Shown here piece after piece: positions 1,566 through 61,308 of a stretch of DNA of 61,308 bases. Location: IMG/VR virus record IMGVR_UViG_3300010383_000012, one strand, 5' to 3'. The notes beneath the pieces were generated by a model. The model searched no databases and was not told the DNA's origin. It was given only the letters and a program-made list of their open reading frames with translations. Within the stretch, counting starts at the first letter, position 1, and each line of letters begins with the position of its first letter. This stretch comes from a virus. The translations under genes were made by a program, and so were the position numbers.

Positions 1566-3509
1566 TTAGGCGGCGACGCCTGCCATCTGCTTTTCGTGAG
1601 TGAAATTCGCCCGGATCAGAGCGTCGGCCACATCCGGGCAAACGCTGTTACCGATCATGCGAACCTGCGAGGATTTCGAAAGCGGCTTGCCCTTGTGCAG
1701 CGGGTCCAGCACGTAGGAGTCCGGGAAGCCCTGCGCACGCGCGAGCTCGCGCGGCGTCAGCATGCGCATGCCGATGTCGACGATTACATAGTCCTCGCCT
1801 TGGATCGTCACCAGCCCGAAGCGGTCATGCGTCGGGATCGTGCCGAGCGGCATCCGCAGGCTCTGGCCGTCCTTGTCGTTGCCGTAGTACTTGATCAGAA
1901 ACGCCCGCACTTCGCCGACATGGCCGCCGCCGGCCGTAAGGGTCGGGATGGGCTCGCGCACGTCTTGGCCGAACTGGTTGTTGCGCAGCTTGAGCAGGGG
2001 CGATGTCACCACCGCTGTATCGGCCTTCGCCGTAACCGTTGCGGCTGGTTCGCTTACGTCGCGCGGCCGGGATTGTCCCGCGCGTCCGCCGCAGCCGACG
2101 AGCTGCGCAGTAACGATCGAGTGATGGTCGCTAGTTGTCACGGTGCCGGTCGGCACGTCTACGCCAGTTCCGACGACGCCGCCGTAGTGCTTCGCGAGAA
2201 ACGCGGAGACCACGGCGTGTTTGACCCCGCCGGCGACCGCAGTGCCGAGCGGCTTATCCAGTCCGGGCACGCGCGGCTCCTGCCCTTGGCGCTCGCCATA
2301 GCCGGTCTGGATGATCGTCGCGGATACGACTCCGAACTTGCTCCCTTGCGTCGTCACTGTATGCAACGGCGCGTCGACCTGTTGGCACGGTGTATCACCG
2401 AAGTTTTGCTTCACGATCGTTGCGGCGACGATCGCCTGCTCACCGCGGTGAGCGCCGGTCACAGTCGCGAGTGGCGCGTCGATGGCCGCCGCGCGATCGC
2501 TGCCGTGGTGCGTGACGTGCATCAAAGTCGGCGCGACGATGCCGAAGCGCGGCGCGCCAGCCATCACCGTGTGAAGAGGTTCGTCCGCAGCCTGTCCAGT
2601 ACTGTTCTCCGAAAACTTCACGATGAACGGATCTGCGCTGTTCACGACGAACTTCATGATGCCCTTGGCGATCCGCCGCAGCGTAGCGTCTTTCAGCGGC
2701 CGCGCGCGCTCGAAGATCGACGGGCACGGGATCGACCAGTCGATGCATTCGGCGGCGGTACGCCATGGCAGAAGCTTGCCGCTGCGTACCGCCTCGCTCT
2801 TCGGGTCGGCGTGCGTTGGCTGCGGCCAGACGATAGGTAGCCCGTCGCGACGCGCGAAGAAATACAGACGCTTGCGGATTGTCGGCGCGCCGAAGTCGCA
2901 CGCACGCAGCACACGCCAATCGGCCCGATAGCCGAGGCCCGCATAAAGTCGCTCCATAGGGAAATCAGCGCCGAGCGTCTCGAAGATTTCCTCTTCGTCG
3001 GGATGGCCCGGCTGCAGGCCGGTAGTGAGCGCCGCGATGAACGCGCGGAACGTGCGCCCCTTTTCAGCCTTTATCGGATGGCCGTCACCGTCGAGCGGCC
3101 CCCAGTCCAAAAATTCTTCGACATTCTCCAGCGCAATTGCACGCGGTGCCTGAAACGTCGCCCATTTCAACGTGATCCATGCGAGCCCGCGGATCTTCTG
3201 CTCGCGAGGCTTACCGCCTTTCGCCTTGCTGTGATGCTTGCAGTCGGGGCTGAACCACGCGAGCCCGATCGGCTGCTGCCCAGTCACGAATCCTGGATGG
3301 ACTGCGAACACATCCTCGGTATAGTGCGCGGTGGTCGGATGGTTGGCCGCGTGCATCGCGAGCGCCTCACCATCGTGGTTGATCGCAATATCGATGGCGC
3401 GCCCGAATGCGCGCTCAATGCCCGTGCTCGCGCCACCGCCGCCGGCGAAGTTGTCGACAATGAGTTCGCGGCCAAGGTCGAGCGGCAATGAGATCAGGTC
3501 ACGTTTCAT
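1566..3509 (-). CDS. dcm: DNA (cytosine-5)-methyltransferase with an expanded repeat-containing variable region
   Basis: 647 aa. Motif I is DNFAGGGGAS, motif IV is FSPDCKHHS, motif VI is ENVEEF, motif IX is LTPRELARAQGFPDSY and motif X is IGNSVCP. The start codon overlaps the RT stop (ATGA at 3506-3509). Confidence 0.9.
   Translation of the reverse strand: MKRDLISLPLDLGRELIVDNFAGGGGASTGIERAFGRAIDIAINHDGEALAMHAANHPTTAHYTEDVFAVHPGFVTGQQPIGLAWFSPDCKHHSKAKGGKPREQKIRGLAWITLKWATFQAPRAIALENVEEFLDWGPLDGDGHPIKAEKGRTFRAFIAALTTGLQPGHPDEEEIFETLGADFPMERLYAGLGYRADWRVLRACDFGAPTIRKRLYFFARRDGLPIVWPQPTHADPKSEAVRSGKLLPWRTAAECIDWSIPCPSIFERARPLKDATLRRIAKGIMKFVVNSADPFIVKFSENSTGQAADEPLHTVMAGAPRFGIVAPTLMHVTHHGSDRAAAIDAPLATVTGAHRGEQAIVAATIVKQNFGDTPCQQVDAPLHTVTTQGSKFGVVSATIIQTGYGERQGQEPRVPGLDKPLGTAVAGGVKHAVVSAFLAKHYGGVVGTGVDVPTGTVTTSDHHSIVTAQLVGCGGRAGQSRPRDVSEPAATVTAKADTAVVTSPLLKLRNNQFGQDVREPIPTLTAGGGHVGEVRAFLIKYYGNDKDGQSLRMPLGTIPTHDRFGLVTIQGEDYVIVDIGMRMLTPRELARAQGFPDSYVLDPLHKGKPLSKSSQVRMIGNSVCPDVADALIRANFTHEKQMAGVAA
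1785..2585 (-). repeat. About 8 tandem, roughly 33-aa degenerate coding repeats (TRD-like modules) inside the C5-MTase
   Basis: Repeated pattern [DE]xP(L)xT(V)T....(V)V...(L)....G. Examples: DEPLHTVMAGAPRFGIVAPTLM, DAPLATVTGAHRGEQAIVAATIV, DAPLHTVTTQGSKFGVVSATII, DKPLGTAVAGGVKHAVVSAFLA, DVPTGTVTTSDHHSIVTAQLV, SEPAATVTAKADTAVVTSPLL, REPIPTLTAGGGHVGEVRAFLI, RMPLGTIPTHDRFGLVTIQGE. Confidence 0.7.
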
Positions 3510-4711
3510 GCGTGCGTACCCTTATATGTTTTTGTTAGTGAACGGTCCACGGCGTGTCCGCGATCGCGAACCACGTTCGCCAACCGCGCGCGGTCGTGGT
3601 GACTGGACGGTGCCTGCCGCAGCAGACCGAAATAGCTATTCGCGAGCACATGCATGTCATCGGCCGGCGCGGCCGCGACGCGCTGCAAACCTTCTGAGGC
3701 AGTGCGGCGCCGCGTCGAGCGGCTCCACGGCTTGATCACCTGCCCGACGAAATCGACGCCGCGCGCGACCGGTTGCATGATGGTCTTGCGAGGATTCAGC
3801 CGCACGCCGAGCGCCGACGGCAGGAACGCGTCGATGTCGCGCAGCACGGCGTTCAGCCAGTCGGTGGACTCGTGCAGGAAGAGGAAGTCGTCCACATACC
3901 GGATGTAGTGCCGCGCGCCGATGACGTGCTTCGCGCGCTGGTCGAGCACGTCGAGGTAGACGTTGGCGAAGAACTGCGACGAGAGGTTGCCAATCGGCAG
4001 CCCAAGGTGCGCAGGTTGATTCATGAGGCGCTTGTGCGGCGGCACCAGCGCCATCAGCGATCGGTCTCCGCGCAGGTCGAAGTCCTCGCGCGGATCGTGG
4101 AACAGGACCGTCTCGGTCAGATCCATCCACCACGGCTCGCCGACCTTGCCCGCGAGCAGCTCGCGCAGAATCCGTTTGTCGATGCTGACGAAGAAATTCG
4201 CCAGATCGCACTTCAGGTAGTGCGCCGGACGACTCCAGTTTTGCGTGATGCTCCGGATCTTCGATTCAAGGCGTTGCGCCGCGTAGAGCGTTCCGCGTCC
4301 GACGATGCAAGCGCAACTGTCGGCGATGAACGAGCGCTCGAACCTTGGACCGATACGGTTGTAAAGCAGGTGATGCACGACGCGATCGCGGAAGTCAGCC
4401 GCCCACACCTCGCGCGGCTTCGGTCGCGTGACCACGAAACAGATCGACCGTCCCGGCGCGTAGCTTCCGTCCGTCAGTTCGTCGTAAAGGTGGCGAAGGT
4501 TACGCTCGAGGTTGGCCTCAAACGTCAGCGCGCTCGCGCTGTTGCGCTTCGTGCGCCGGCAGTCGAGGTACGCCTCGACGAGTTCGGTGAAGGTGAAATC
4601 AGCCTGCGCGTTCCAATCTGCGGACGGCACGCGCGCGGAGCGCGTTGGTCTTGTGGTTGTTGTTCTGGTTACCGTTGTTGAAGTTCTGATACCAGGCCCA
4701 ACCGCATCCAT
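3506..4711 (-). CDS. DGR reverse transcriptase (start uncertain: ATG 4711 reads through the TR; GTG 4630 is an alternative)
   Basis: RT motifs RPKPREVWAADFRDRVVHHLLY, the DGR-clade signature LPIGNLSSQFFANVYL and the catalytic RYVDDFLF. The ORF track extends to 4987, but that part overlaps avd and the TR. Confidence 0.9.
   Translation of the reverse strand: MDAVGPGIRTSTTVTRTTTTRPTRSARVPSADWNAQADFTFTELVEAYLDCRRTKRNSASALTFEANLERNLRHLYDELTDGSYAPGRSICFVVTRPKPREVWAADFRDRVVHHLLYNRIGPRFERSFIADSCACIVGRGTLYAAQRLESKIRSITQNWSRPAHYLKCDLANFFVSIDKRILRELLAGKVGEPWWMDLTETVLFHDPREDFDLRGDRSLMALVPPHKRLMNQPAHLGLPIGNLSSQFFANVYLDVLDQRAKHVIGARHYIRYVDDFLFLHESTDWLNAVLRDIDAFLPSALGVRLNPRKTIMQPVARGVDFVGQVIKPWSRSTRRRTASEGLQRVAAAPADDMHVLANSYFGLLRQAPSSHHDRARLANVVRDRGHAVDRSLTKTYKGTHA
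4615..4704 (-). repeat. DGR template repeat (TR), 90 nt
   Basis: The coding strand reads GGT TGG GCC TGG TAT CAG AAC TTC AAC AAC GGT AAC CAG AAC AAC AAC CAC AAG ACC AAC GCG CTC CGC GCG CGT GCC GTC CGC AGA TT, with 8 AAC codons. It is identical to both VRs except at adenines. Confidence 0.92.
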
Positions 4712-4847
4712 CGTGCTATCTACGTCGTCCGGCCGATCGCTCAGCGGGAAAACTGCGCCGGACCGTTCCGCACTCCGGCGGATGGTTTCCGTGGTGCGCA
4801 TGGCGGTGGCCTCGTGAGCCAGCGGCACGACCAGATTGAAAGATCGC

Positions 4848-5222
4848 TCAGTCATGGTGGCCTTGACCTCCATGAAGCGGGCGAATTGCGGCGCGACGCC
4901 ATCCAGTTGCCTGCTTGCCGATGCTCGTCGTGAGCTCGACCGCTTTGGCATAGCCGCCGCGAGAGATGAGGCGCTTGTCCATCGCAAGCCGGACCAGCAG
5001 CTCGATCACCTGAATACGCTCGAGCAATTCCGTCAAATGCACGGACTTGTCCTGTGCGACGTTCGCGCGGAACACGAGCACCGTTATTTCGATGCACTCG
5101 GCGCTGATCTTCTCGCCGATCGAACGCTTGAAATCGCGCTGCATGTTCTTGACGAGGTCGGTGACAGCGTCGAGAAGATCGTAGGCGACTTTGTAGATCG
5201 GCAGCTGTGTGTGGATGGCCAT
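4848..5222 (-). CDS. avd: DGR accessory variability determinant (Avd-like four-helix-bundle protein)
   Basis: 124 aa, basic and helical (LPIYKVAYDLLDAVTDLVKNM...ISAECIEITVLVFRAN...ERIQVIELLVRLAMDKRLIS). It sits between the target gene and the TR, as in canonical DGRs. Confidence 0.8.
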   Translation of the reverse strand: MAIHTQLPIYKVAYDLLDAVTDLVKNMQRDFKRSIGEKISAECIEITVLVFRANVAQDKSVHLTELLERIQVIELLVRLAMDKRLISRGGYAKAVELTTSIGKQATGWRRAAIRPLHGGQGHHD

Positions 5223-5239
5223 GCTGAGAAAGGACTAAA

Positions 5240-5698
5240 TTACTGAAGCACTAATCTGCGGACGGCACGCGCGCGGAGCGCGTAGGTCTTGAGGCCGTTG
5301 GTCTGGTGACCGCTGACGAAGCCCTGATACCAGGCCCAACCGGTCTCCTTCTCGTGCTGCTGGCACGACCAGTAGTAAGAGGACTGGAACTCGCCTTTCA
5401 GGTTGGCGAACAGCAGCGATTGCTCGCGCCGAGTCGGCAGCACACCGCCTTGCTCGCACGCCCACTTGACGGCCGCATGCCAGTCAACGCTTTCTGCCTC
5501 ACCGGGCAGCAGGATCAGGTGATGGCCAGCTTCGCCGTTCTCGCCGAGCACCAGACCTGCGTAGCGCTCGCCCGGCGCGAGGGTGATCGTCTGCGCATTC
5601 ACCACATACTCTGTCGTGGCGGCCTGCCTTTCGAACGCGGCGATCATTTCGCCGACCTTCGTGTGCTCGGCCTTGATGGCCTCAAGCGTGATCGTCAT
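5240..5698 (-). CDS. DGR variable protein 1 (DUF1566 / C-type-lectin-fold-like, 152 aa)
   Basis: Start MTITLEAIKAEH with GGAG upstream. Contains GGVLPTRREQSLLFANLKGEFQSSYYWSCQQ...GWAWYQGFVSGHQTNGLKTYALRARAVRRL. The VR covers the last roughly 30 codons. No signal peptide or TM segment is visible. Confidence 0.85.
   Translation of the reverse strand: MTITLEAIKAEHTKVGEMIAAFERQAATTEYVVNAQTITLAPGERYAGLVLGENGEAGHHLILLPGEAESVDWHAAVKWACEQGGVLPTRREQSLLFANLKGEFQSSYYWSCQQHEKETGWAWYQGFVSGHQTNGLKTYALRARAVRRLVLQ
5253..5342 (-). repeat. DGR variable repeat 1 (VR1)
   Basis: The 90-nt ungapped alignment to the TR has 11 mismatches, and every one falls where the TR coding strand has A. Confidence 0.92.
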
Positions 5699-5727
5699 TG
5701 CGAACGCTCCAGAAAATGGATGAATGA

Positions 5728-6087
5728 TTAAATGGACAATCTGCGGACGGCACGCGCGCGGAGCGCGTCGGTCTTGTGGTTGTCGTGCTGGCCACCGTAG
5801 CCGAAGTACTGACACCAGGCCCAACCGCTGTCGTCGGTATCCTCCTGATTGCTCCAGTACGCGGCCTCCTTGAACTGGTCGCGGCAGTTGGCAAACAGCA
5901 TTGCCTGCTCGACGCGCGTCGGCAGATCGCCGCCGATGCTCTTCGCCCATGCGAGCTGCTCGGACCACGACGCGCGCTCGTTGTCGCCCGGCAGCAGTAC
6001 GATGTGCTGCACGTCGCCGTTCTTGTCGCCGATCGCGCCCACATAAACTTCGCCTTCGGACAGCGGTGGAATCTGAAGTTGCTGCAT
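5728..6087 (-). CDS. DGR variable protein 2 (DUF1566 / C-type-lectin-fold-like, 119 aa)
   Basis: Start MQQLQIPPLSEG with GAGGAAA upstream. Contains GGDLPTRVEQAMLFANCRDQFKEAAYWSNQ...GWAWCQYFGYGGQHDNHKTDALRARAVRRL. It is a paralogue of variable protein 1, and the VR lies at its 3' end. Confidence 0.85.
   Translation of the reverse strand: MQQLQIPPLSEGEVYVGAIGDKNGDVQHIVLLPGDNERASWSEQLAWAKSIGGDLPTRVEQAMLFANCRDQFKEAAYWSNQEDTDDSGWAWCQYFGYGGQHDNHKTDALRARAVRRLSI
5738..5827 (-). repeat. DGR variable repeat 2 (VR2)
   Basis: The 90-nt ungapped alignment to the TR has 10 mismatches, all at TR adenines. The substitution pattern differs from VR1. Confidence 0.92.
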
Positions 6088-6099
6088 TCTGGTTTCCTC

Positions 6100-6130
6100 A
6101 AAAAATCGGGCGCTATGCGAGCCGCCCTTC
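6100..6130 (-). terminator. Intrinsic terminator/attenuator hairpin directly upstream of DGR target 2
   Basis: Minus strand: GGGCG-loop-CGCCC followed by a T6 run. It is a near copy of the hairpin at 6176..6204. Confidence 0.55.
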
Positions 6131-6175
6131 AAAACCAGCGCCTTGGACGGGACGCTGGGCGGGGGTAAATCGGTC

Positions 6176-6204
6176 AAAAAGCGGGCGCCGAACTGGCCGC
6201 CCTT
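6176..6204 (-). terminator. Intrinsic terminator/attenuator hairpin (first of a tandem pair)
   Basis: Minus strand: AAGGGCGGCCAGTTCGGCGCCCGCTTTTT. Confidence 0.55.
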
Positions 6205-6225
6205 AAAACACACGACGCGCTGATG

Positions 6226-7657: not shown

Positions 7658-8271
7658 GCCGCGGCCGCCAGATGCTTCTTGATGCCGTAATAGACGGCTT
7701 TGCAAGCCATCACATCGACGTTGGCGTTGTGTGCGCCTTCGAGCTTGCTGCCGGTAAAGAACTCGTATGCCTCTGCGAGGTTCGGCGACTTGGCGTGTTT
7801 ACGGCCGGCGGCGAGCATCTTTGCGGTAGGCGGAAGATTGATGATCTTCGTGCTCTTGCCTTGCGTGCAGAACGCCGGCGCGGACTTCCACGTGTCGTGG
7901 AAGGGATCGTCGTGATCGATCTCGCGGAAGTACTCGATGCGCAACATGCGGGCGTCGAACGATTCGTTGTGTCCCGCGCGCATCGCTGCGCGCTTCCACA
8001 TGTCGGTGAACTGACCGATCGCATCACGGCGGTCGATGCCTTCGGCCATCGCGCGCTCGGTCGTGATGCCGGTGAGCGCGGCCAGTTCGTCTGGAATCGT
8101 CCAGCCGTCCGGCTTGATCAGGACATCCATCGTCGCGATAACGTTGCCGTTGTGTTCGTCGCACAGCTCTGCGGCCAGTTGCGTGACGTAAGGCTGCGAC
8201 GGATCTTCCGAGGGCAACCCCCACTGCGGCAGGCCATTGGTTTCGGTGTCGTAGAAGAGAATGAGGTCCAT
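7654..8271 (-). CDS. DnaQ-like DEDDh 3'-5' exonuclease
   Basis: Exo I is FYDTETNG, Exo II is GHNESFDARML and Exo III is HNANVDVMAC. Confidence 0.85.
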   Translation of the reverse strand: MDLILFYDTETNGLPQWGLPSEDPSQPYVTQLAAELCDEHNGNVIATMDVLIKPDGWTIPDELAALTGITTERAMAEGIDRRDAIGQFTDMWKRAAMRAGHNESFDARMLRIEYFREIDHDDPFHDTWKSAPAFCTQGKSTKIINLPPTAKMLAAGRKHAKSPNLAEAYEFFTGSKLEGAHNANVDVMACKAVYYGIKKHLAAAA

Positions 8272-15185: not shown

Positions 15186-15488
15186 CTACCTGAGCGTCGT
15201 GAAGAAGGTGTACAGCTTGGTCGGTTCGCCGGGAATGCGCACGATGGCGTGAGATAGCATAGCCACGTCGACCAAAACCACTTGCTGGCCCTTCCGGAGC
15301 ATCACGCAACGGCCGGACGTGAATTCGCTTTCGAGAAGCTTGAACTCGTGGTTTGACAGATAGCTCCTGGCGTCAGAGAAGGCCTCTTCGCTTGTGCAGC
15401 CGAAGCTGTTGTCTGTGACCGTTTTTACGTTCTCAGCAAGGGCGAAGCTGGAAAACACGGCAAAGAGCGTTGCGATGAGCGCTCGCAT
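15186..15488 (-). CDS. Secreted small protein co-transcribed with the repressor (100 aa)
   Basis: Signal peptide MRALIATLFAVFSSFALA. Two Cys residues. Visibly lower GC than the flanks. The start shares one nucleotide with the cI stop. Confidence 0.6.
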   Translation of the reverse strand: MRALIATLFAVFSSFALAENVKTVTDNSFGCTSEEAFSDARSYLSNHEFKLLESEFTSGRCVMLRKGQQVVLVDVAMLSHAIVRIPGEPTKLYTFFTTLR

Positions 15489-16285
15489 CACCGCCGCCGA
15501 TATTTGCGGTGTTCGACCATGACGCCGATGATGTGAAGATGATCGCGCTCGCTATGCAGAATAGCGAAGTCGTCATTGAGCGGCACGAGCTCGAACACCA
15601 TCTCGCCGCGCTCGCTCGTTCCTCGCGGGCGGTATTTCTTAAAGGTCGCTTCCTCGTGCGAATTCTTCGCGACAACGAAGTCACCGGGCTGTGGGGAAAC
15701 GGCGGGGTCGATTATCACCTTGTCGCCTTCCTTGAACTCAGGCTCCATCGACGGCCCCTTGATGATCAGGCCAAAAGCGCCCGCTGATAGGTCCAAGTCC
15801 GTCGCGATAGTTTCAAATCCGTCGCCCAATGAAAATGGGTCTACTGCTTCTGTCATCATGCCGGCCTGCACGTAGCTAATTACGGGGATCTCTCGGTAAC
15901 CCACTGTCCCGCGCTCGAAATTCCCGTACGCAGTGGGCTTCTTTTCCGTAATGCTAGGCGCGTCACCGCCAGCCGATTTAACAATCAGGCTCCCGTTTGG
16001 TGCGCTGATCCGCTTATCAGCAGACGTTGAAATGTGTTGTGCGGCGAGCGCGCTTTCAATGCCAAGGTCGAAATAAAGGTTCGGGAGCCCGAGGGCTTTT
16101 TCCAGTTTGCGAGCCGCGCCTTCCTTGAACCCGGCTCCTCCGCGGTAATTGGGGTTGAGCATCTGCCTCAACCTGGTGGCGTCTGGCGCGTTGGGGTGCG
16201 CTCTGGCAAAGGCCGCGACATTGCCGTCAGCTTCCCTGTCTACCAACTCTTGAAGCCGCGCTCTGCGGTATGCATCGATATCCAT
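15488..16285 (-). CDS. cI: CI-type repressor (HTH plus S24 LexA-like autopeptidase)
   Basis: 265 aa. The catalytic Ser is in GPSMEPEF and the catalytic Lys in ATFKKY. It is divergent from the cro-like gene. Confidence 0.85.
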   Translation of the reverse strand: MDIDAYRRARLQELVDREADGNVAAFARAHPNAPDATRLRQMLNPNYRGGAGFKEGAARKLEKALGLPNLYFDLGIESALAAQHISTSADKRISAPNGSLIVKSAGGDAPSITEKKPTAYGNFERGTVGYREIPVISYVQAGMMTEAVDPFSLGDGFETIATDLDLSAGAFGLIIKGPSMEPEFKEGDKVIIDPAVSPQPGDFVVAKNSHEEATFKKYRPRGTSERGEMVFELVPLNDDFAILHSERDHLHIIGVMVEHRKYRRR

Positions 16286-17227: not shown

Positions 17228-17442
17228 ATCTTAGAAAGTGCGATGCGGGGAAAGTGTTCATCGCACCTTCCGGCCGGCTCGTGTCGTTTGAAGCTGAAAA
17301 AGGTGGCGTCTATATGTTCACGTATCTGGACGACCCGACTGACGGGCTGGCACTGTCTTTCGACGGGCTGCGCATTCTCGAGCGCGCGCGAGAACTGCCA
17401 TGTGATGCGGTGCCGATCACACGCCCCATAGGTGTCGCATGA
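17224..17442 (+). CDS. Hypothetical protein (72 aa)
   Basis: ATGA overlaps on both sides. Confidence 0.45.
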   Translation: MNLRKCDAGKVFIAPSGRLVSFEAEKGGVYMFTYLDDPTDGLALSFDGLRILERARELPCDAVPITRPIGVA

Positions 17443-19940
17443 GCACGCCCGACTATGCCGCCTTCCTGCGGCAGAAGATCAAGATGGCGAACTTCGCGGG
17501 CTTCCGCGTCGAGCTCTCCGCCCTGCACGAATGCCTGTATCCGCACCAGCGTGACATCGTCCGTTGGGCCGTACTCGGCGGCAACCGCGCGATCTTTGCC
17601 AAGTTCGGCCTAGGCAAGTCGGTTATGCAATGCGAGTGGCTGCGCCAGATCATTATGGCGGCCGGCGGAATCGGCCTTGTTGTCTGCCCGCTCGGCGTGC
17701 GCCAGGAATTGATCCGCGACGCGTCGATGCTTGGCATTCAGCTGCGCTTTATCCGGAGCGCCAGGGAGATTACCGACGGGCACGCGTTCTATCTCACTAA
17801 CTACGAGACGATCCGCGACGGGAAGCTCGACCCGGCGCTGTTCACCGCTGTCAGCCTCGATGAGGCGAGCGTATTGCGCAGCTTTGGCAGCAAGACGTAT
17901 CAGGAATTCTTGCCGCTCTTCGACTACGTGAAATTCAAGCTGGTCAACACGGCCACGCCGAGCCCGAACCGCTTCAAGGAACTCATTCACTACGCCGCGT
18001 TCCTCGGCGTCATGGACAGCGGCCAGGCGTTGACACGCTTCTTCCAGCGTGACAGCGAGAAGGCCGGCAACCTGACGCTCTACCCGCACAAGGAGCAAGA
18101 GTTCTGGCTGTGGGTATCCAGCTGGGCTGTGTTCATCCAGTTCCCGAGCGACCTCGGTTACAGCGACGATGGCTATGACCTCCCCGCGCTGGACGTGCGC
18201 TATCACGAAGTGCCAACCGACTACGCCAAGGCCGGCGCCGACCGCGACGGTCAGGCACTGATGTTTCAGGACCCCGCACTAGGCCTGAGTGCCGCCGCAG
18301 CCGAGAAGCGCGACAGCCTGCCCGCGCGGGTCGCGAAGGTGAAGGAGATCATTGACGCGGATCGCGAGGATCACTTCGTTATCTGGCATGACCTCGAGTC
18401 GGAGCGCCACGCGATCCAGCAGGCCGTGCCGGACGTCGTCAGCGTGTGGGGCACGCAGGATCTGGAAGAGCGCGAAGCGCGCATCGTTGAGTTCGGCAAC
18501 GGCGCATACCGCCTGCTGTCGACCAAGCCGGTTATCGCCGGCTCCGGCTGCAATTTTCAGCGCCATTGCCACCGCGAGATCTTCGCCGGCATCGGCTTCA
18601 AGTTCAACGACTTCATCCAGGCGATTCACCGGGTGCAGCGTTTCCAGCAACCTCACCGCGTTCGCATCGACATCGTCTACAGCGAAGCCGAGCGCGAGGT
18701 GTTACGCACTCTCCAGCAGAAGTGGGTGCAGCACGATGAGATGGTGCAAAAAATGACCGAAATCATCCGTAAGTACGGGCTGAACCAGCTCGCGATGCAG
18801 GAGACGCTCGCGCGCTCCATCGGCGTCGACCGCATCGAAGTGAAGAGCGACCGCTTTTCCGTCGCGAACAACGACTGCGTCGAGGAAGCGAAGCTGCAAC
18901 CGGACAATCACGTCGACCTGATCGTTACGTCGATCCCGTTCGCAAACCACTACGAGTACTCGCCCAGTTACAACGACTTCGGGCACACGGACAACAACGA
19001 GCATTTCTGGAGCCAGATGGATTTTCTGACTCCCGAGCTGCTGCGCATTCTGAAGCCCGGCCGCATTTACGCGTGCCATGTGAAAGACCGGATCCTGTTC
19101 GGCAACGTCACGGGCGCCGGCGCGCCGACGGTCAGTCCGTTCCACTGCGAAGCGATCATGCACGGCCGCAAGCACGGCTTCGACTACATGGGCCTCGTTA
19201 CGGTCGTGACCGACGTCGTCCGGGAGAACAACCAGACTTATCGACTCGGCTGGTCGGAGCAGTGCAAGGACGGCTCGAAGATGGGCGTCGGCTCGCCTGA
19301 ATACATCGCGTTGTTCCGCAAGCCGCAAACGGACCGCTCGAAGGGTTACGCAGACACCCCGGTGAGGAAGTCGAAAGAGGAATACACGCGCGCGCACTGG
19401 CAGGTCGATGCACATGCCTTCTGGCGCAGCAGCGGCAACCGGCAGATCACCGCCGACGAACTCGCCTCGCTCGGGCCCGACAAGCTCGCCAGCATCTTCA
19501 CGCAATACAGCTTGCAGAACGTCTACGACTACGAGTTCCACGTGAAAATAGGCGAGGAACTGGAAGCGCGCGGCGCGCTTCCTTCGACGTTCATGAGCCT
19601 CGCTCCCGGCTCACACCATCCCGATGTCTGGCACGACGTCACACGTATGCTGACGCTCAATGGTGACCAGGCTAAGCGCGCCGTGGAAAAGCACGTGTGC
19701 CCGCTGCAGTTCGACATCGTCGACCGCCTGATCGACCGGTACAGCAATCCCGATGAGCTCGTCTACGACCCCTTCTGCGGCATCGGCACGGTGCCCTATC
19801 GCGCGATTCTGAAGGGGCGCCGCGGCGGCGGTTCGGAATTGAACGCCGCTTATTTCATGGATCAGGTTCATTACCTGCGCGCCGCTGAGCGCGAGTACTC
19901 CATGCCGTCGCTGTTCGACACGCTCGAGGTGGCCGCGTGA
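17439..19940 (+). CDS. SNF2/DEAD-like helicase fused to an N6/N4 DNA methyltransferase (beta-class motif order)
   Basis: Helicase motif I is AKFGLGKS, motif II is SLDEAS, motif III is NTATPSPN and motif VI is QAIHRVQRFQQ. MTase motif IV-like is DLIVTSIPFANHY and motif I is VYDPFCGIGTVPY. Confidence 0.8.
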   Translation: MSTPDYAAFLRQKIKMANFAGFRVELSALHECLYPHQRDIVRWAVLGGNRAIFAKFGLGKSVMQCEWLRQIIMAAGGIGLVVCPLGVRQELIRDASMLGIQLRFIRSAREITDGHAFYLTNYETIRDGKLDPALFTAVSLDEASVLRSFGSKTYQEFLPLFDYVKFKLVNTATPSPNRFKELIHYAAFLGVMDSGQALTRFFQRDSEKAGNLTLYPHKEQEFWLWVSSWAVFIQFPSDLGYSDDGYDLPALDVRYHEVPTDYAKAGADRDGQALMFQDPALGLSAAAAEKRDSLPARVAKVKEIIDADREDHFVIWHDLESERHAIQQAVPDVVSVWGTQDLEEREARIVEFGNGAYRLLSTKPVIAGSGCNFQRHCHREIFAGIGFKFNDFIQAIHRVQRFQQPHRVRIDIVYSEAEREVLRTLQQKWVQHDEMVQKMTEIIRKYGLNQLAMQETLARSIGVDRIEVKSDRFSVANNDCVEEAKLQPDNHVDLIVTSIPFANHYEYSPSYNDFGHTDNNEHFWSQMDFLTPELLRILKPGRIYACHVKDRILFGNVTGAGAPTVSPFHCEAIMHGRKHGFDYMGLVTVVTDVVRENNQTYRLGWSEQCKDGSKMGVGSPEYIALFRKPQTDRSKGYADTPVRKSKEEYTRAHWQVDAHAFWRSSGNRQITADELASLGPDKLASIFTQYSLQNVYDYEFHVKIGEELEARGALPSTFMSLAPGSHHPDVWHDVTRMLTLNGDQAKRAVEKHVCPLQFDIVDRLIDRYSNPDELVYDPFCGIGTVPYRAILKGRRGGGSELNAAYFMDQVHYLRAAEREYSMPSLFDTLEVAA

Positions 19941-57108: not shown

Positions 57109-58239
57109 TCAGGCCGATCTTCGCGCGGGAAGCGCCAGCCGAACGTTGGAAACCTTCACCTCCCGCGACTTGATATAACCCTCGGTGGTCGCGCGGTCGG
57201 TATGGGCCCCGGCCACCTGCAGCTCGTCGATGTCATACCCCGCCTTCTTCGCATCGGTCAGCGCTTTCGCGCGGATGTCCTTGATGGTGTACGGCGCATC
57301 CTTCAGTCCGCACCTTTCCATCGCCCCTTCCCACGCGTCGCGGACCGACTGATCTGTCTTCGGCTTGCCGTGCCTGTCACGAATGACATACGTCTGGCCG
57401 AAGGCCGGGTCGAGTTTGCGCGCGCGCTCGAGCACCGCGTCGATCTCCGGCGTTATCGGCCAATCCACCATCTCTCCACTGGAGTCCTCGGTCTTGGACG
57501 GCAGGAAGTGAAGCACGCCCGCGTCGCGGTCAACGTAGCTGCTGCTGAACCGGTCTTTTTCATCCACGGTCCAGCGAAGGTTCCGGATTTCGGTCGATCG
57601 CTGCGCAGTCAGGTAACAAAGGTCGATAAAGCACTGCATCATCGGGCCCGTCAGCACTTTGGATTGCCTTCCCGTCTTCGGGTGAGGCTTCGACAGCATG
57701 AGCGCATCGCGGATCGCGAGGAACGCCGAATCGGGTATGTAGACGGTGCGCGACTTTGGCTTCTTAACCTTCACCTCGCGGGCCGGGTTCACCGAAACGA
57801 GCTTCTTCTTGCGGATGATCCAGTTAAAGAACTTTGACACCCATGCTTTCATGGCCTTTTGCGTCGATAGTTTGTCGGGCCACTCGTCGGTTAGAAAGTC
57901 CTCAACGGCGCTCGCATCGAGCAGTTCGACATTCCAGTCGCGGAAGTAACTCGCGACGACTTCTCCGCGGCGCACCCATTCATCGCGAAACGACTCGGCA
58001 TAGCCGCCCTTGTGCAGATCGACGAACTCGCGCACGAGCCGCGGCAGATTTCCGGTGCCCAGTGACGGCTCAAATTTGCGCTTTTCCTCGGCGAGGCGCT
58101 CGAACATGCGGCGGTCGCCCTCGTCGGTGCGCGATAGCTTGATCCACTTGTTGTCGTGGCGCACCCAGTAATAGGCTCCCGATTTGACATACACGCGACT
58201 CGGCAGACCATCTGGGCGCGCGCGGCGTCGCGCATTCAT
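57109..58239 (-). CDS. int: Tyrosine integrase
   Basis: 376 aa. Contains LTAQRSTEIRNLRW (Arg), IKDIRAKALTD and AGAHTDRATTEGYI (His..Arg..Tyr). It is adjacent to attP. Confidence 0.9.
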   Translation of the reverse strand: MNARRRARPDGLPSRVYVKSGAYYWVRHDNKWIKLSRTDEGDRRMFERLAEEKRKFEPSLGTGNLPRLVREFVDLHKGGYAESFRDEWVRRGEVVASYFRDWNVELLDASAVEDFLTDEWPDKLSTQKAMKAWVSKFFNWIIRKKKLVSVNPAREVKVKKPKSRTVYIPDSAFLAIRDALMLSKPHPKTGRQSKVLTGPMMQCFIDLCYLTAQRSTEIRNLRWTVDEKDRFSSSYVDRDAGVLHFLPSKTEDSSGEMVDWPITPEIDAVLERARKLDPAFGQTYVIRDRHGKPKTDQSVRDAWEGAMERCGLKDAPYTIKDIRAKALTDAKKAGYDIDELQVAGAHTDRATTEGYIKSREVKVSNVRLALPARRSA

Positions 58240-60098: not shown

Positions 60099-60394
60099 TC
60101 ACCTCCCAAACCGTTGAGCTTCAGCAGCACGAACCGCACGTTCTGCAGGCTCGACTCTCGATAGATGCCGCGCGCGATCGCGCCGATTAGCCACAGCAGG
60201 TAGAGCCGTTGGTTCACGCGATAGAACGCTTCGAGCTGCGGCTTATCGGTCGGCGCGGGCCCGACCGCCGCGCAATGAGGCCGCAGCTTCTCCGGCAGCG
60301 CGGCGATCGCGGCCGCGTGCTGCTCGCGGACCTCGGCCATCGGGTCCGGCTGCGCTTCCTCGATGGGATGGCCGAATAAATCGAACTGGCTCAC
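60092..60394 (-). CDS. Hypothetical protein (100 aa)
   Basis: ORF with overlapping start and stop in the operon. Confidence 0.45.
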   Translation of the reverse strand: MSQFDLFGHPIEEAQPDPMAEVREQHAAAIAALPEKLRPHCAAVGPAPTDKPQLEAFYRVNQRLYLLWLIGAIARGIYRESSLQNVRFVLLKLNGLGGEW

Positions 60395-61308
60395 TCGGCA
60401 CCTCGCGGGAATTCATCATGCGTGCGGCCGTCGAGGTGGCGACCGGCAGTTTTCTTGCCGACGCGGTAGACAGTCGGCTCGTCGTCATAGGTCATGCCCA
60501 CGGATGCGCCCGGCGTCAGGGTGCTGAACTTCCATTCGCCGCCCCACCAGTCTGCGACACGTTCAGTGCGTTTCATCGAGCCACCGCAGTTCTCGCCGGG
60601 CGCCCACTCGCCCCATTGCTTGAACAGGAAGGGCACCCTCGCGGATTGGCATTGATCTCGCAGCGAGCTTGCCCAGTCAGGATGCATCGGCCGCGCGTCG
60701 CGGCCGCTTTCTCCGCCGCAAATCACCCAGTCGATACCATCGTCGTAGCCGGTCCAGCTTGCCAGTTCACCGCAATGCGGGCAGCGCGGCGCGACTTCAT
60801 CACCGTCGCTCGATGTCTCGACGGCGTCCGCGTCGACGTATTTTGAGTCAGGGCAAACGTCCATACAGGTGATGCCCGTCGGGTCCAGCCACCGCGTTAG
60901 ATCGATGGGGCCAAGCATCGGCTCAACACTCAGGAAACGGACAGCGGCCGGCACCTCGAGCAGCTTCGGAATGTCGCGGTCTGCCTCTTCCTGATTGACG
61001 ATCGTTGCGCCGATCCAGACGTTGTCATGAAGTCTCGGCTTTTCGCTGCATTCCAAGTCGAACTGGTACTGAGCAGCCTCGCTCACCATCGACATGACAT
61101 TGCCGATACGCTTCGTGAGCAGCAGCCAGTCGAGGTTCGGCGTCTTTTCTATCAGGTCAAACAGGTCTGCGCGCCATTGATGGTCGACGGTGTTGTCGAA
61201 CACGTCCGCGAGCGATGCGCAGAACACGCGCTGGCGCCGGCCGTGCGCGGCGAAGAACTCGTCGTGCGCGGCGTTCCATTGCAACGGCTTGCGCCAGTTC
61301 GCCGGCGA
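60391..61308 (-). CDS. Gp37/Gp68-family (DUF5131) protein, 3' portion; its 5' end is at 223..1
   Basis: The frame stays open to the window edge. The 55-nt overlap joins it to the ATG at 223. Confidence 0.8.
   Translation of the reverse strand, partial: SPANWRKPLQWNAAHDEFFAAHGRRQRVFCASLADVFDNTVDHQWRADLFDLIEKTPNLDWLLLTKRIGNVMSMVSEAAQYQFDLECSEKPRLHDNVWIGATIVNQEEADRDIPKLLEVPAAVRFLSVEPMLGPIDLTRWLDPTGITCMDVCPDSKYVDADAVETSSDGDEVAPRCPHCGELASWTGYDDGIDWVICGGESGRDARPMHPDWASSLRDQCQSARVPFLFKQWGEWAPGENCGGSMKRTERVADWWGGEWKFSTLTPGASVGMTYDDEPTVYRVGKKTAGRHLDGRTHDEFPRGAE
61254..61308. repeat. Terminal overlap, identical to 1..55
   Basis: Exact 55/55 identity with the first 55 nt. Confidence 0.9.

Follow-up and report, generated by a model that had tools for sequence, protein, structure and literature searches.

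The IMG/VR virus record IMGVR_UViG_3300010383_000012, a stretch of 61,308 nt that we refer to as the window, very probably contains an intact diversity-generating retroelement (DGR) carried by a temperate phage. All the expected components of a DGR are present, intact, and in canonical order around the repeats: along the minus strand, target gene 2, target gene 1, avd (accessory variability determinant), the structured RNA motif RT-15, the template repeat (TR), and the reverse transcriptase (RT) gene (Table 1). The variable repeats (VR1 and VR2) at the ends of the two target genes differ from TR exclusively at template adenines. As a DGR, the locus is a textbook case of a known system and adds little. 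What is new is the placement of RT-15, which adjoins the 5' end of TR and pairs through its own 5' strand with the TR 3' end in a duplex supported by covariation.

A repeat search of the window returned a single direct repeat in three copies, at 4614-4705, 5252-5343, and 5737-5828. An earlier note on this DNA had counted 11 mismatches between TR and VR1 and 10 between TR and VR2, every one of them at a T on the plus strand, that is, at an A on the coding (minus) strand. Ungapped re-alignment over 90 nt reproduced both counts and placed 21/21 mismatches at adenines with zero elsewhere; the translations of the three repeats and the number of AAC codons were also exactly as noted. With 25 T in the 90-nt TR, the hypergeometric chance of both mismatch sets falling on T only is 6.1e-14; restricting the count to the variable part (59 nt, 22 T) gives 2.6e-11. 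Mapped from the alignment positions, 19 of the 21 substitutions lie inside AAC codons, the other two being TAT>TGT (4690, VR2) and CAC>CTC (4654, VR1), and all 21 are nonsynonymous. The adenines of the two TR CAG codons (4686-4688 and 4665-4667) are unchanged in both VRs. The earlier figure of roughly 22 variable-region adenines needs a small correction: We count 23 located 5' of the invariant block, including the second A of the last AAC codon, which is unchanged in VR1 and VR2.

At non-adenine positions, TR is identical to each VR (65/65), but the target genes are only 67% identical over the 141 aligned nucleotides upstream of the VRs. The VRs have thus received information from TR well after the duplication of the genes that carry them. 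VR1 and VR2 differ from each other at 15 positions yet match TR at every non-A position, which supports separate and fairly recent retrohoming events, as the earlier note had proposed. Judged from the sequence, the intactness of the cassette and the lack of non-A drift suggest that the element is active now. The 31 nucleotides at the 3' end had been described as invariant and are indeed the same in all three repeats. No fourth copy of this block was found in the window at three or fewer mismatches, and a search of the window for a further VR or DUF1566 paralogue found none.

Table 1. Features of the retroelement and its immediate surroundings in the window
Feature	Coordinates	Strand	Remarks
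RT (DGR reverse transcriptase)	3506..4714	-	Conserved core from ~4606, stop at 3506; frame open up to 4987
Duplex 3' strand, CAGAUUGGAA	4611..4620	-	Last 6 nt of TR and the next 4 nt
TR	4615..4704	-	25 adenines, 8 AAC codons; inside the RT open frame, in a different frame
Invariant GC-rich 3' block of TR (IMH*-equivalent)	4615..4645	-	Identical to 5253-5283 in VR1 and 5738-5768 in VR2
RT-15 RNA (Rfam RF03018), multihelix	4704..4886	-	From the last 39 nt of avd to the first base of TR
Duplex 5' strand, UUUCAAUCUG	4832..4841	-	Just 5' of RT-15 helix P1
avd, 124 aa, four-helix bundle	4848..5222	-	PF22296, phrog_3206
Target gene 1, 152 aa; N-terminal helix (residues 5-26), then C-type-lectin fold	5240..5698	-	AlphaFold, PDB matches, homologues
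VR1	5253..5342	-	3' end of target 1; 11 A-to-N differences from TR
Target gene 2, 120 aa; stand-alone C-type-lectin/DUF1566 protein	5728..6090	-	Lcl_C E 2.4e-5, below the Pfam cut-off
VR2	5738..5827	-	3' end of target 2; 10 A-to-N differences from TR
Two tandem stem-loop and U-run repeats upstream of target 2	6095..6215	-	Membership in the element uncertain

The RT matches RVT_1 at 8e-13 and phrog_1423 at 1e-110, carries the DGR signature IGNLSSQ at residue 241 and the catalytic YVDD at 273, and has its best solved-structure match in the RT of Bordetella phage BPP-1 (bRT, 8ub7; 1.6e-32). The avd product scores above the cut-off for PF22296 (bAvd; 5e-13) and matches phrog_3206, "Avd protein of DGR," at 8.8e-30; a sequence-level search of the PDB gave no match for it. 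The 3' end of TR lies inside the RT reading frame whichever of the candidate starts discussed below applies. Upstream of TR, the differences between the window and its closest relative fall at codon positions 1 and 2, not 3, and the stretch therefore does not look protein-coding. In the segment 4642-4801 (minus strand), where TR lies within the RT open frame, it is read in the +1 frame as a Thr-rich peptide. Relatives of the Pseudomonas clade have a stop just upstream and their sole in-frame ATG inside TR, so that the RT N terminus is there encoded by TR.

The interval between avd and TR, 145 nt in length, is strongly conserved. The RT-15 covariance model matches it and the avd end at 170.5 bits, the gathering score being 82, and the match spans model positions 1-192 of 192. 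Independently of Rfam, RNAalifold applied to the avd-TR interval of 64 loci predicted 33 pairs, 23 of them with compensatory changes. RT-15 was found in 10 of the 10 relatives tested, its 3' end always within a few bases of the TR 5' boundary. The long-range duplex joins UUUCAAUCUG to CAGAUUGGAA: Across 78 loci, 81.6% of cells are paired, in comparison with 24-45% when the partner is slid, and the covariation score is 0.223 against 0.084 in shuffled data (0/500 shuffles). One of its pairs occurs in the same loci as U-A (33), G-C (18), and C-G (8). In another fold proposed by RNAalifold, the RT-15 strand UCUGGU pairs instead with ACCAGA inside TR; both sides are invariant and hence uninformative for covariation. 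The bases of the TR CAG codons are the same bases as in this possible pairing. We infer that TR is a loop with both of its ends anchored on folded RNA, that RT-15 acts as a cis-acting accessory RNA of this DGR clade, and that the duplex would fix the location of both the primer and the initial template base (G4621). When RT-1 to RT-19 were reported (Weinberg et al. 2017), the motifs were characterized only by their proximity to RT genes; the single one linked to a DGR was RT-10, which in BPP-1 is located between TR and brt. Upstream and downstream duplexes were described for BPP-1 by Handa et al. and predicted for 207/278 DGRs.

The two target genes are old paralogues with 47% identity. Both start with ATG, preceded by GAGGAA 8 nt upstream in target 2 and by GGAG 10 nt upstream in target 1, and in both, the VR stops four to five codons short of the stop codon. 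The length of target 2 equals that of gp47 of Burkholderia phage Magia. For target 1, the AlphaFold model has a predicted local distance difference test score (pLDDT) of 90.9; its top PDB match by Foldseek is the C-terminal domain of Legionella Lcl (8q4e), followed by classical C-type lectins, and its matches in BFVD are phage DUF1566 proteins. Target 1 has more than 1100 homologues named DUF1566/Lcl C-terminal domain by NCBI or UniRef, many with a precomputed PF07603 match. When 58 homologues are aligned, the scaffold shows no variation, and the variable columns are those that derive from TR-adenine codons. Reading the sequences, we found neither a signal peptide nor a lipobox in target 1 or target 2.

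To place the element among its relatives, we scanned for related RTs with one genome per species, which gave 201 relatives, and kept 80 loci. The same cassette is present in at least 80 beta- and gammaproteobacterial genomes, the family being widespread in soil and water Betaproteobacteria and in Pseudomonas; the loci kept come from Paraburkholderia (the best, 91%), Ralstonia, Cupriavidus, Janthinobacterium, Undibacterium, Pseudomonas, and others. A script run over them counted two VRs in 53 loci and three to four in 21; nearly all loci thus carry two to four. The adenine pattern recurs in ~170 TR/VR pairs from 78 other loci: Family-wide, TR adenines account for 2131/2191 mismatches and other bases for the remaining 60. 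The substitution rate is 58% for AAC adenines, whereas the scaffold CAG adenine is changed in only 3/435 cases, which indicates selection for functional proteins after mutagenesis and is compatible with purifying selection at the scaffold glutamines. Among the related loci, the cassette is conserved and the flanks are different. The closest relative, Paraburkholderia rhynchosiae, has an RT that is 91% identical and a TR that differs by one base; the comparison of VRs among relatives that the earlier note had proposed shows that its VRs are entirely different from those of the window. In one metagenome-assembled genome, contig CBIHRA010000002.1 holds two copies of the cassette (111293-124372 and 173393-186472), 62 kb apart and identical in TR/VR coordinates and mismatch counts, which are either a duplicated prophage or an assembly artifact.

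By homology with BPP-1, diversification is expected to proceed from a transcript that runs from the avd end through RT-15 and TR into the RT gene and is bound by the RT-Avd complex. The RT would copy TR into cDNA from the GC-rich 3' block, placing random bases opposite template adenines, and the cDNA would then take the place of the 90-nt VR homologous to it, at the 3' end of target 1 or target 2. In the C-type lectin, up to 14 codons for the ligand-binding face could thus be recoded, giving ~3e13 possible peptides per target, while the scaffold residues would stay fixed. The 5' strand of RT-15, when paired with the last TR bases, could set the start and stop of the cDNA in the manner of the spacer (Sp) and avd RNA in BPP-1. 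In the more speculative reading given below, the last paired RT-15 nucleotide (G4832) would use its 2'-OH to prime opposite G4621, in the way that Sp A56 primes opposite TR G117 in BPP-1.

Several observations weigh against an intact element that works in this way. The window represents a single consensus sequence, and the search for a second copy of this phage with which to compare it found none. The RT start has three candidates, none decisively favored by comparisons: GTG 4630 aligns with Met1 of BPP-1 bRT and fits its N terminus; ATG 4714 is ATA or ATT in some close relatives; and ATG 4801 is conserved but lies within an invariant RT-15 helix. The Lcl_C/DUF1566 (PF07603) scores of the targets, 25.0 and 20.5 bits, are below the gathering cut-off of 34.9. 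The covariation of the duplex comes mostly from one or two pairs that differ between clades and may reflect few independent events. In BPP-1, the essential Sp RNA is located 3' of TR. Here TR passes directly into RT coding sequence, and a search for conserved RNA structure 3' of TR with RNAalifold on 60 loci found only four invariant pairs, so that the BPP-1 priming mechanism is not simply transferable. RT-10, the BPP-1-type Sp element, gave no match at E up to 1, and a 7-bp hairpin in the RT 5' coding region of the window, considered as an Sp-like element, was rejected as it is not conserved in relatives. Finally, the 3' block had been likened to an initiation of mutagenic homing (IMH) element. 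The likeness holds for its position and GC-richness but not for the IMH/IMH* distinction, which is absent: The TR and VR copies match through to their last homologous base, and the mark of the VR as recipient must therefore lie outside the repeat. No GC-rich inverted repeat was found 3' of either VR, and in the search for a hairpin or cruciform like that of BPP-1, the DNA there folds no better than shuffles (z -0.4 and -0.6). A distinct IMH/IMH* pair and a GC-rich inverted repeat 3' of VR are features of BPP-1 and are not universal. Some DGRs have identical IMH and IMH*, and inverted repeats are present in only 34% (Wu et al. 2018).

Some of the same observations lend weight to the idea that the locus is a fossil, in which diversification took place in the past, the cassette is now inactive, and the VRs are frozen alleles. 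The single consensus sequence, with no copy of the same phage in the collections searched, would agree with this, as would the ambiguous RT start together with the absence of the clade-typical start (the in-frame ATG inside TR that many relatives use for RT is ACG in the window) and the failure to find an IMH difference or a hairpin that marks the recipient. A frozen cassette is nevertheless hard to reconcile with 0 mismatches in 130 non-A positions beside flanking gene sequence of 67% identity, with the intact catalytic and DGR motifs of the RT, the intact Avd, RT-15, and both target open reading frames (ORFs), or with the different VRs that the close relatives each carry, and we consider it unlikely. 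An origin without any retroelement, with the repeats as remnants of a gene family and their differences gathered on T/A by compositional bias or selection, has in its favor only the location of TR inside an ORF. It is already refuted by statistics and context, namely the chance of 6e-14, the adjoining RT and Avd, and the recurrence of the adenine-only pattern across the family. An intact DGR remains our preferred reading, and the DGR interpretation of the earlier note is supported.

What the diversified proteins do is a separate question. They could serve in the virion as receptor-binding proteins, perhaps as small adhesins docked on tail fibers, with the DGR switching host range as in BPP-1. 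Such a role is usual for phage DGR targets (Roux et al. 2021; PMC10743442), the window encodes a myovirus-type tail with fiber genes, and the N-terminal helix of target 1 could serve in oligomerization or docking. The DGR is, however, located within the leftward early (recombination) operon, ~40 kb from the tail-fiber genes, which themselves contain no VR, and the neighbors of the targets are RecT, nucleases, an ATPase, and a regulator. The targets are proteins of only 120-152 aa with the lectin fold alone, the cassette moves as a unit between unrelated flanks, and their PHROG family is one to which PHROG assigns no function. Small size, lack of export signals, and position in the early operon argue against the usual tail-fiber role, which we regard as somewhat improbable here. 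The targets are most likely variable binding proteins that are produced either early in infection or by the prophage. In a joint and more speculative reading, RT-15 would be a 5'-placed counterpart of Sp that primes at G4832/G4621, forming a permuted DGR RNA architecture of a large proteobacterial clade, and the targets would be intracellular early-operon binders such as counterdefense or exclusion factors; we offer this combination tentatively and do not expect all of it to hold.

The surroundings of the cassette are those of a complete phage genome. Bases 1-55 recur exactly at 61254-61308, and this 55-bp terminal direct repeat points to a circular assembly and a complete temperate phage genome of ~61.25 kb. 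The structural genes in the window include terminase, portal, tail sheath, tape measure, baseplate, and tail-fiber proteins; lysogeny is represented by an integrase (57109-58239) and a CI-like S24 repressor (15488-16285). The tail, repressor, and integrase genes together identify a temperate myovirus-like phage. Further genes encode a PD-(D/E)XK nuclease, an AAA ATPase, and a RecT-like annealing protein. A C5 cytosine DNA methyltransferase of 647 aa (1566-3509, minus strand) starts 4 nt before the RT stop, in an ATGA overlap, and 17/82 related loci have a homologue of it after RT, often immediately. Elsewhere in the window, the gene at 17439-19940 (plus strand) specifies a protein of 833 aa that has an N6/N4 DNA methylase domain; its DNA sequence resembles that of Pseudomonas phage genes, some annotated as SNF2 helicase and others as methylase. 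A DUF5131 protein is encoded at 60391-61284 (minus strand). Between a 66-aa ORF and target 2, a stem-loop with a U-run occurs in two copies (6101-6133 and 6176-6208, minus strand). These are possibly intrinsic terminators insulating the cassette, and the annotation of Magia has a terminator in the corresponding position; the copies fold no better than shuffles and were missed by a consensus terminator scan. A 32-mer from the avd/target 1 junction had no exact match in viral_contigs or metagenome_contigs, and looking up the exact protein sequence of target 1 yielded no recorded contig that encodes it. The invariant 29-mer of the TR 3' end occurred in four metagenome stretches; the one that was read (L083) has a different TR and is therefore another element.

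Earlier publications cover the mechanism, the class of target, cassettes with two targets, and even an orthologue of this cassette from an isolated Burkholderia phage. The locus is of value as a DGR that is clean, complete, and probably active and that sits in the circular genome of a temperate phage. A specialist might find only two points new: where RT-15 lies and with what it pairs, and the nonstructural location of the targets. The former places an orphan Rfam motif in a DGR and provides a second, differently arranged DGR RNA to set beside the cryo-electron microscopy model of BPP-1. The latter puts diversified proteins in an early recombination operon, not in a tail module, and raises the question of which ligand is bound by a lectin-fold protein that is early, hypervariable, and without a signal peptide; if the targets are truly intracellular binders, phage DGRs would extend from host recognition to intracellular conflict.

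Compared with the DGR of Bordetella phage BPP-1 (mtd-avd-TR-brt), the element has the same order of target, avd, TR, and RT, a homologous RT and an Avd, an adenine-only TR/VR spectrum with AAC-rich TR codons, and a VR at the C terminus of a C-type-lectin fold with a GC-rich invariant 3' block. BPP-1 has one target, the tail-fiber tip protein, whereas here two stand-alone lectin domains lie in tandem in the early operon. BPP-1 has IMH/IMH* and a cruciform 3' of VR; here, the TR and VR 3' ends are identical, and no cruciform was found. Unlike in BPP-1, TR abuts or overlaps the RT coding sequence. The accessory RNA of BPP-1 is RT-10/Sp, 3' of TR, whereas here it is RT-15, 5' of TR; the TR-flanking duplexes of BPP-1 are thus resembled in principle but built from an upstream, not a downstream, accessory RNA.

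The only isolated phages with DNA similarity to the window are Burkholderia phage Magia (NC_070954, genes 44-47 and 57) and phages vB_E192a/vB_PL1, in which the similarity is 75% and limited to an orthologous cassette. Magia has 75% nucleotide identity over RT, avd, and both targets in the same order, RT-15, adenine-only mismatches, and the same early-operon position beside a helix-turn-helix regulator, an AAA ATPase, and RecT. It differs in its TR sequence and in the rest of its genome, which is unrelated at the DNA level, and has a third, remote VR gene (gp57), whereas the window has the C5 DNA methyltransferase after RT. The annotation of Magia and its 2021 announcement (PMC7883833) already report a "potential DGR" comprising RT, Avd, and, as targets, genes 47 and 57; the announcement names no other target. 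Magia gp46, annotated as "hypothetical protein," is the orthologue of target 1 and contains a VR (7709-7798 of the Magia locus L001) with 11 adenine-only differences from TR.

The variable domain belongs to the same class, with a DUF1566/Lcl_C-type lectin fold, as LdtA of Legionella pneumophila and the CLec2/DUF1566 proteins of "category d." LdtA is a surface lipoprotein with export signals, whereas the targets here have neither a signal peptide nor a lipobox. According to Wu et al. (2018), approximately half of category d, into which the element falls, consists of short proteins with no other domain, and 13% of DGRs have two-target cassettes. The RT-15 motif (RF03018; Weinberg et al. 2017) is matched here over its full length and far above its gathering score; described there as being near RT genes, it is now placed from the 3' end of avd to the 5' end of TR, with a pairing that reaches the TR 3' end.

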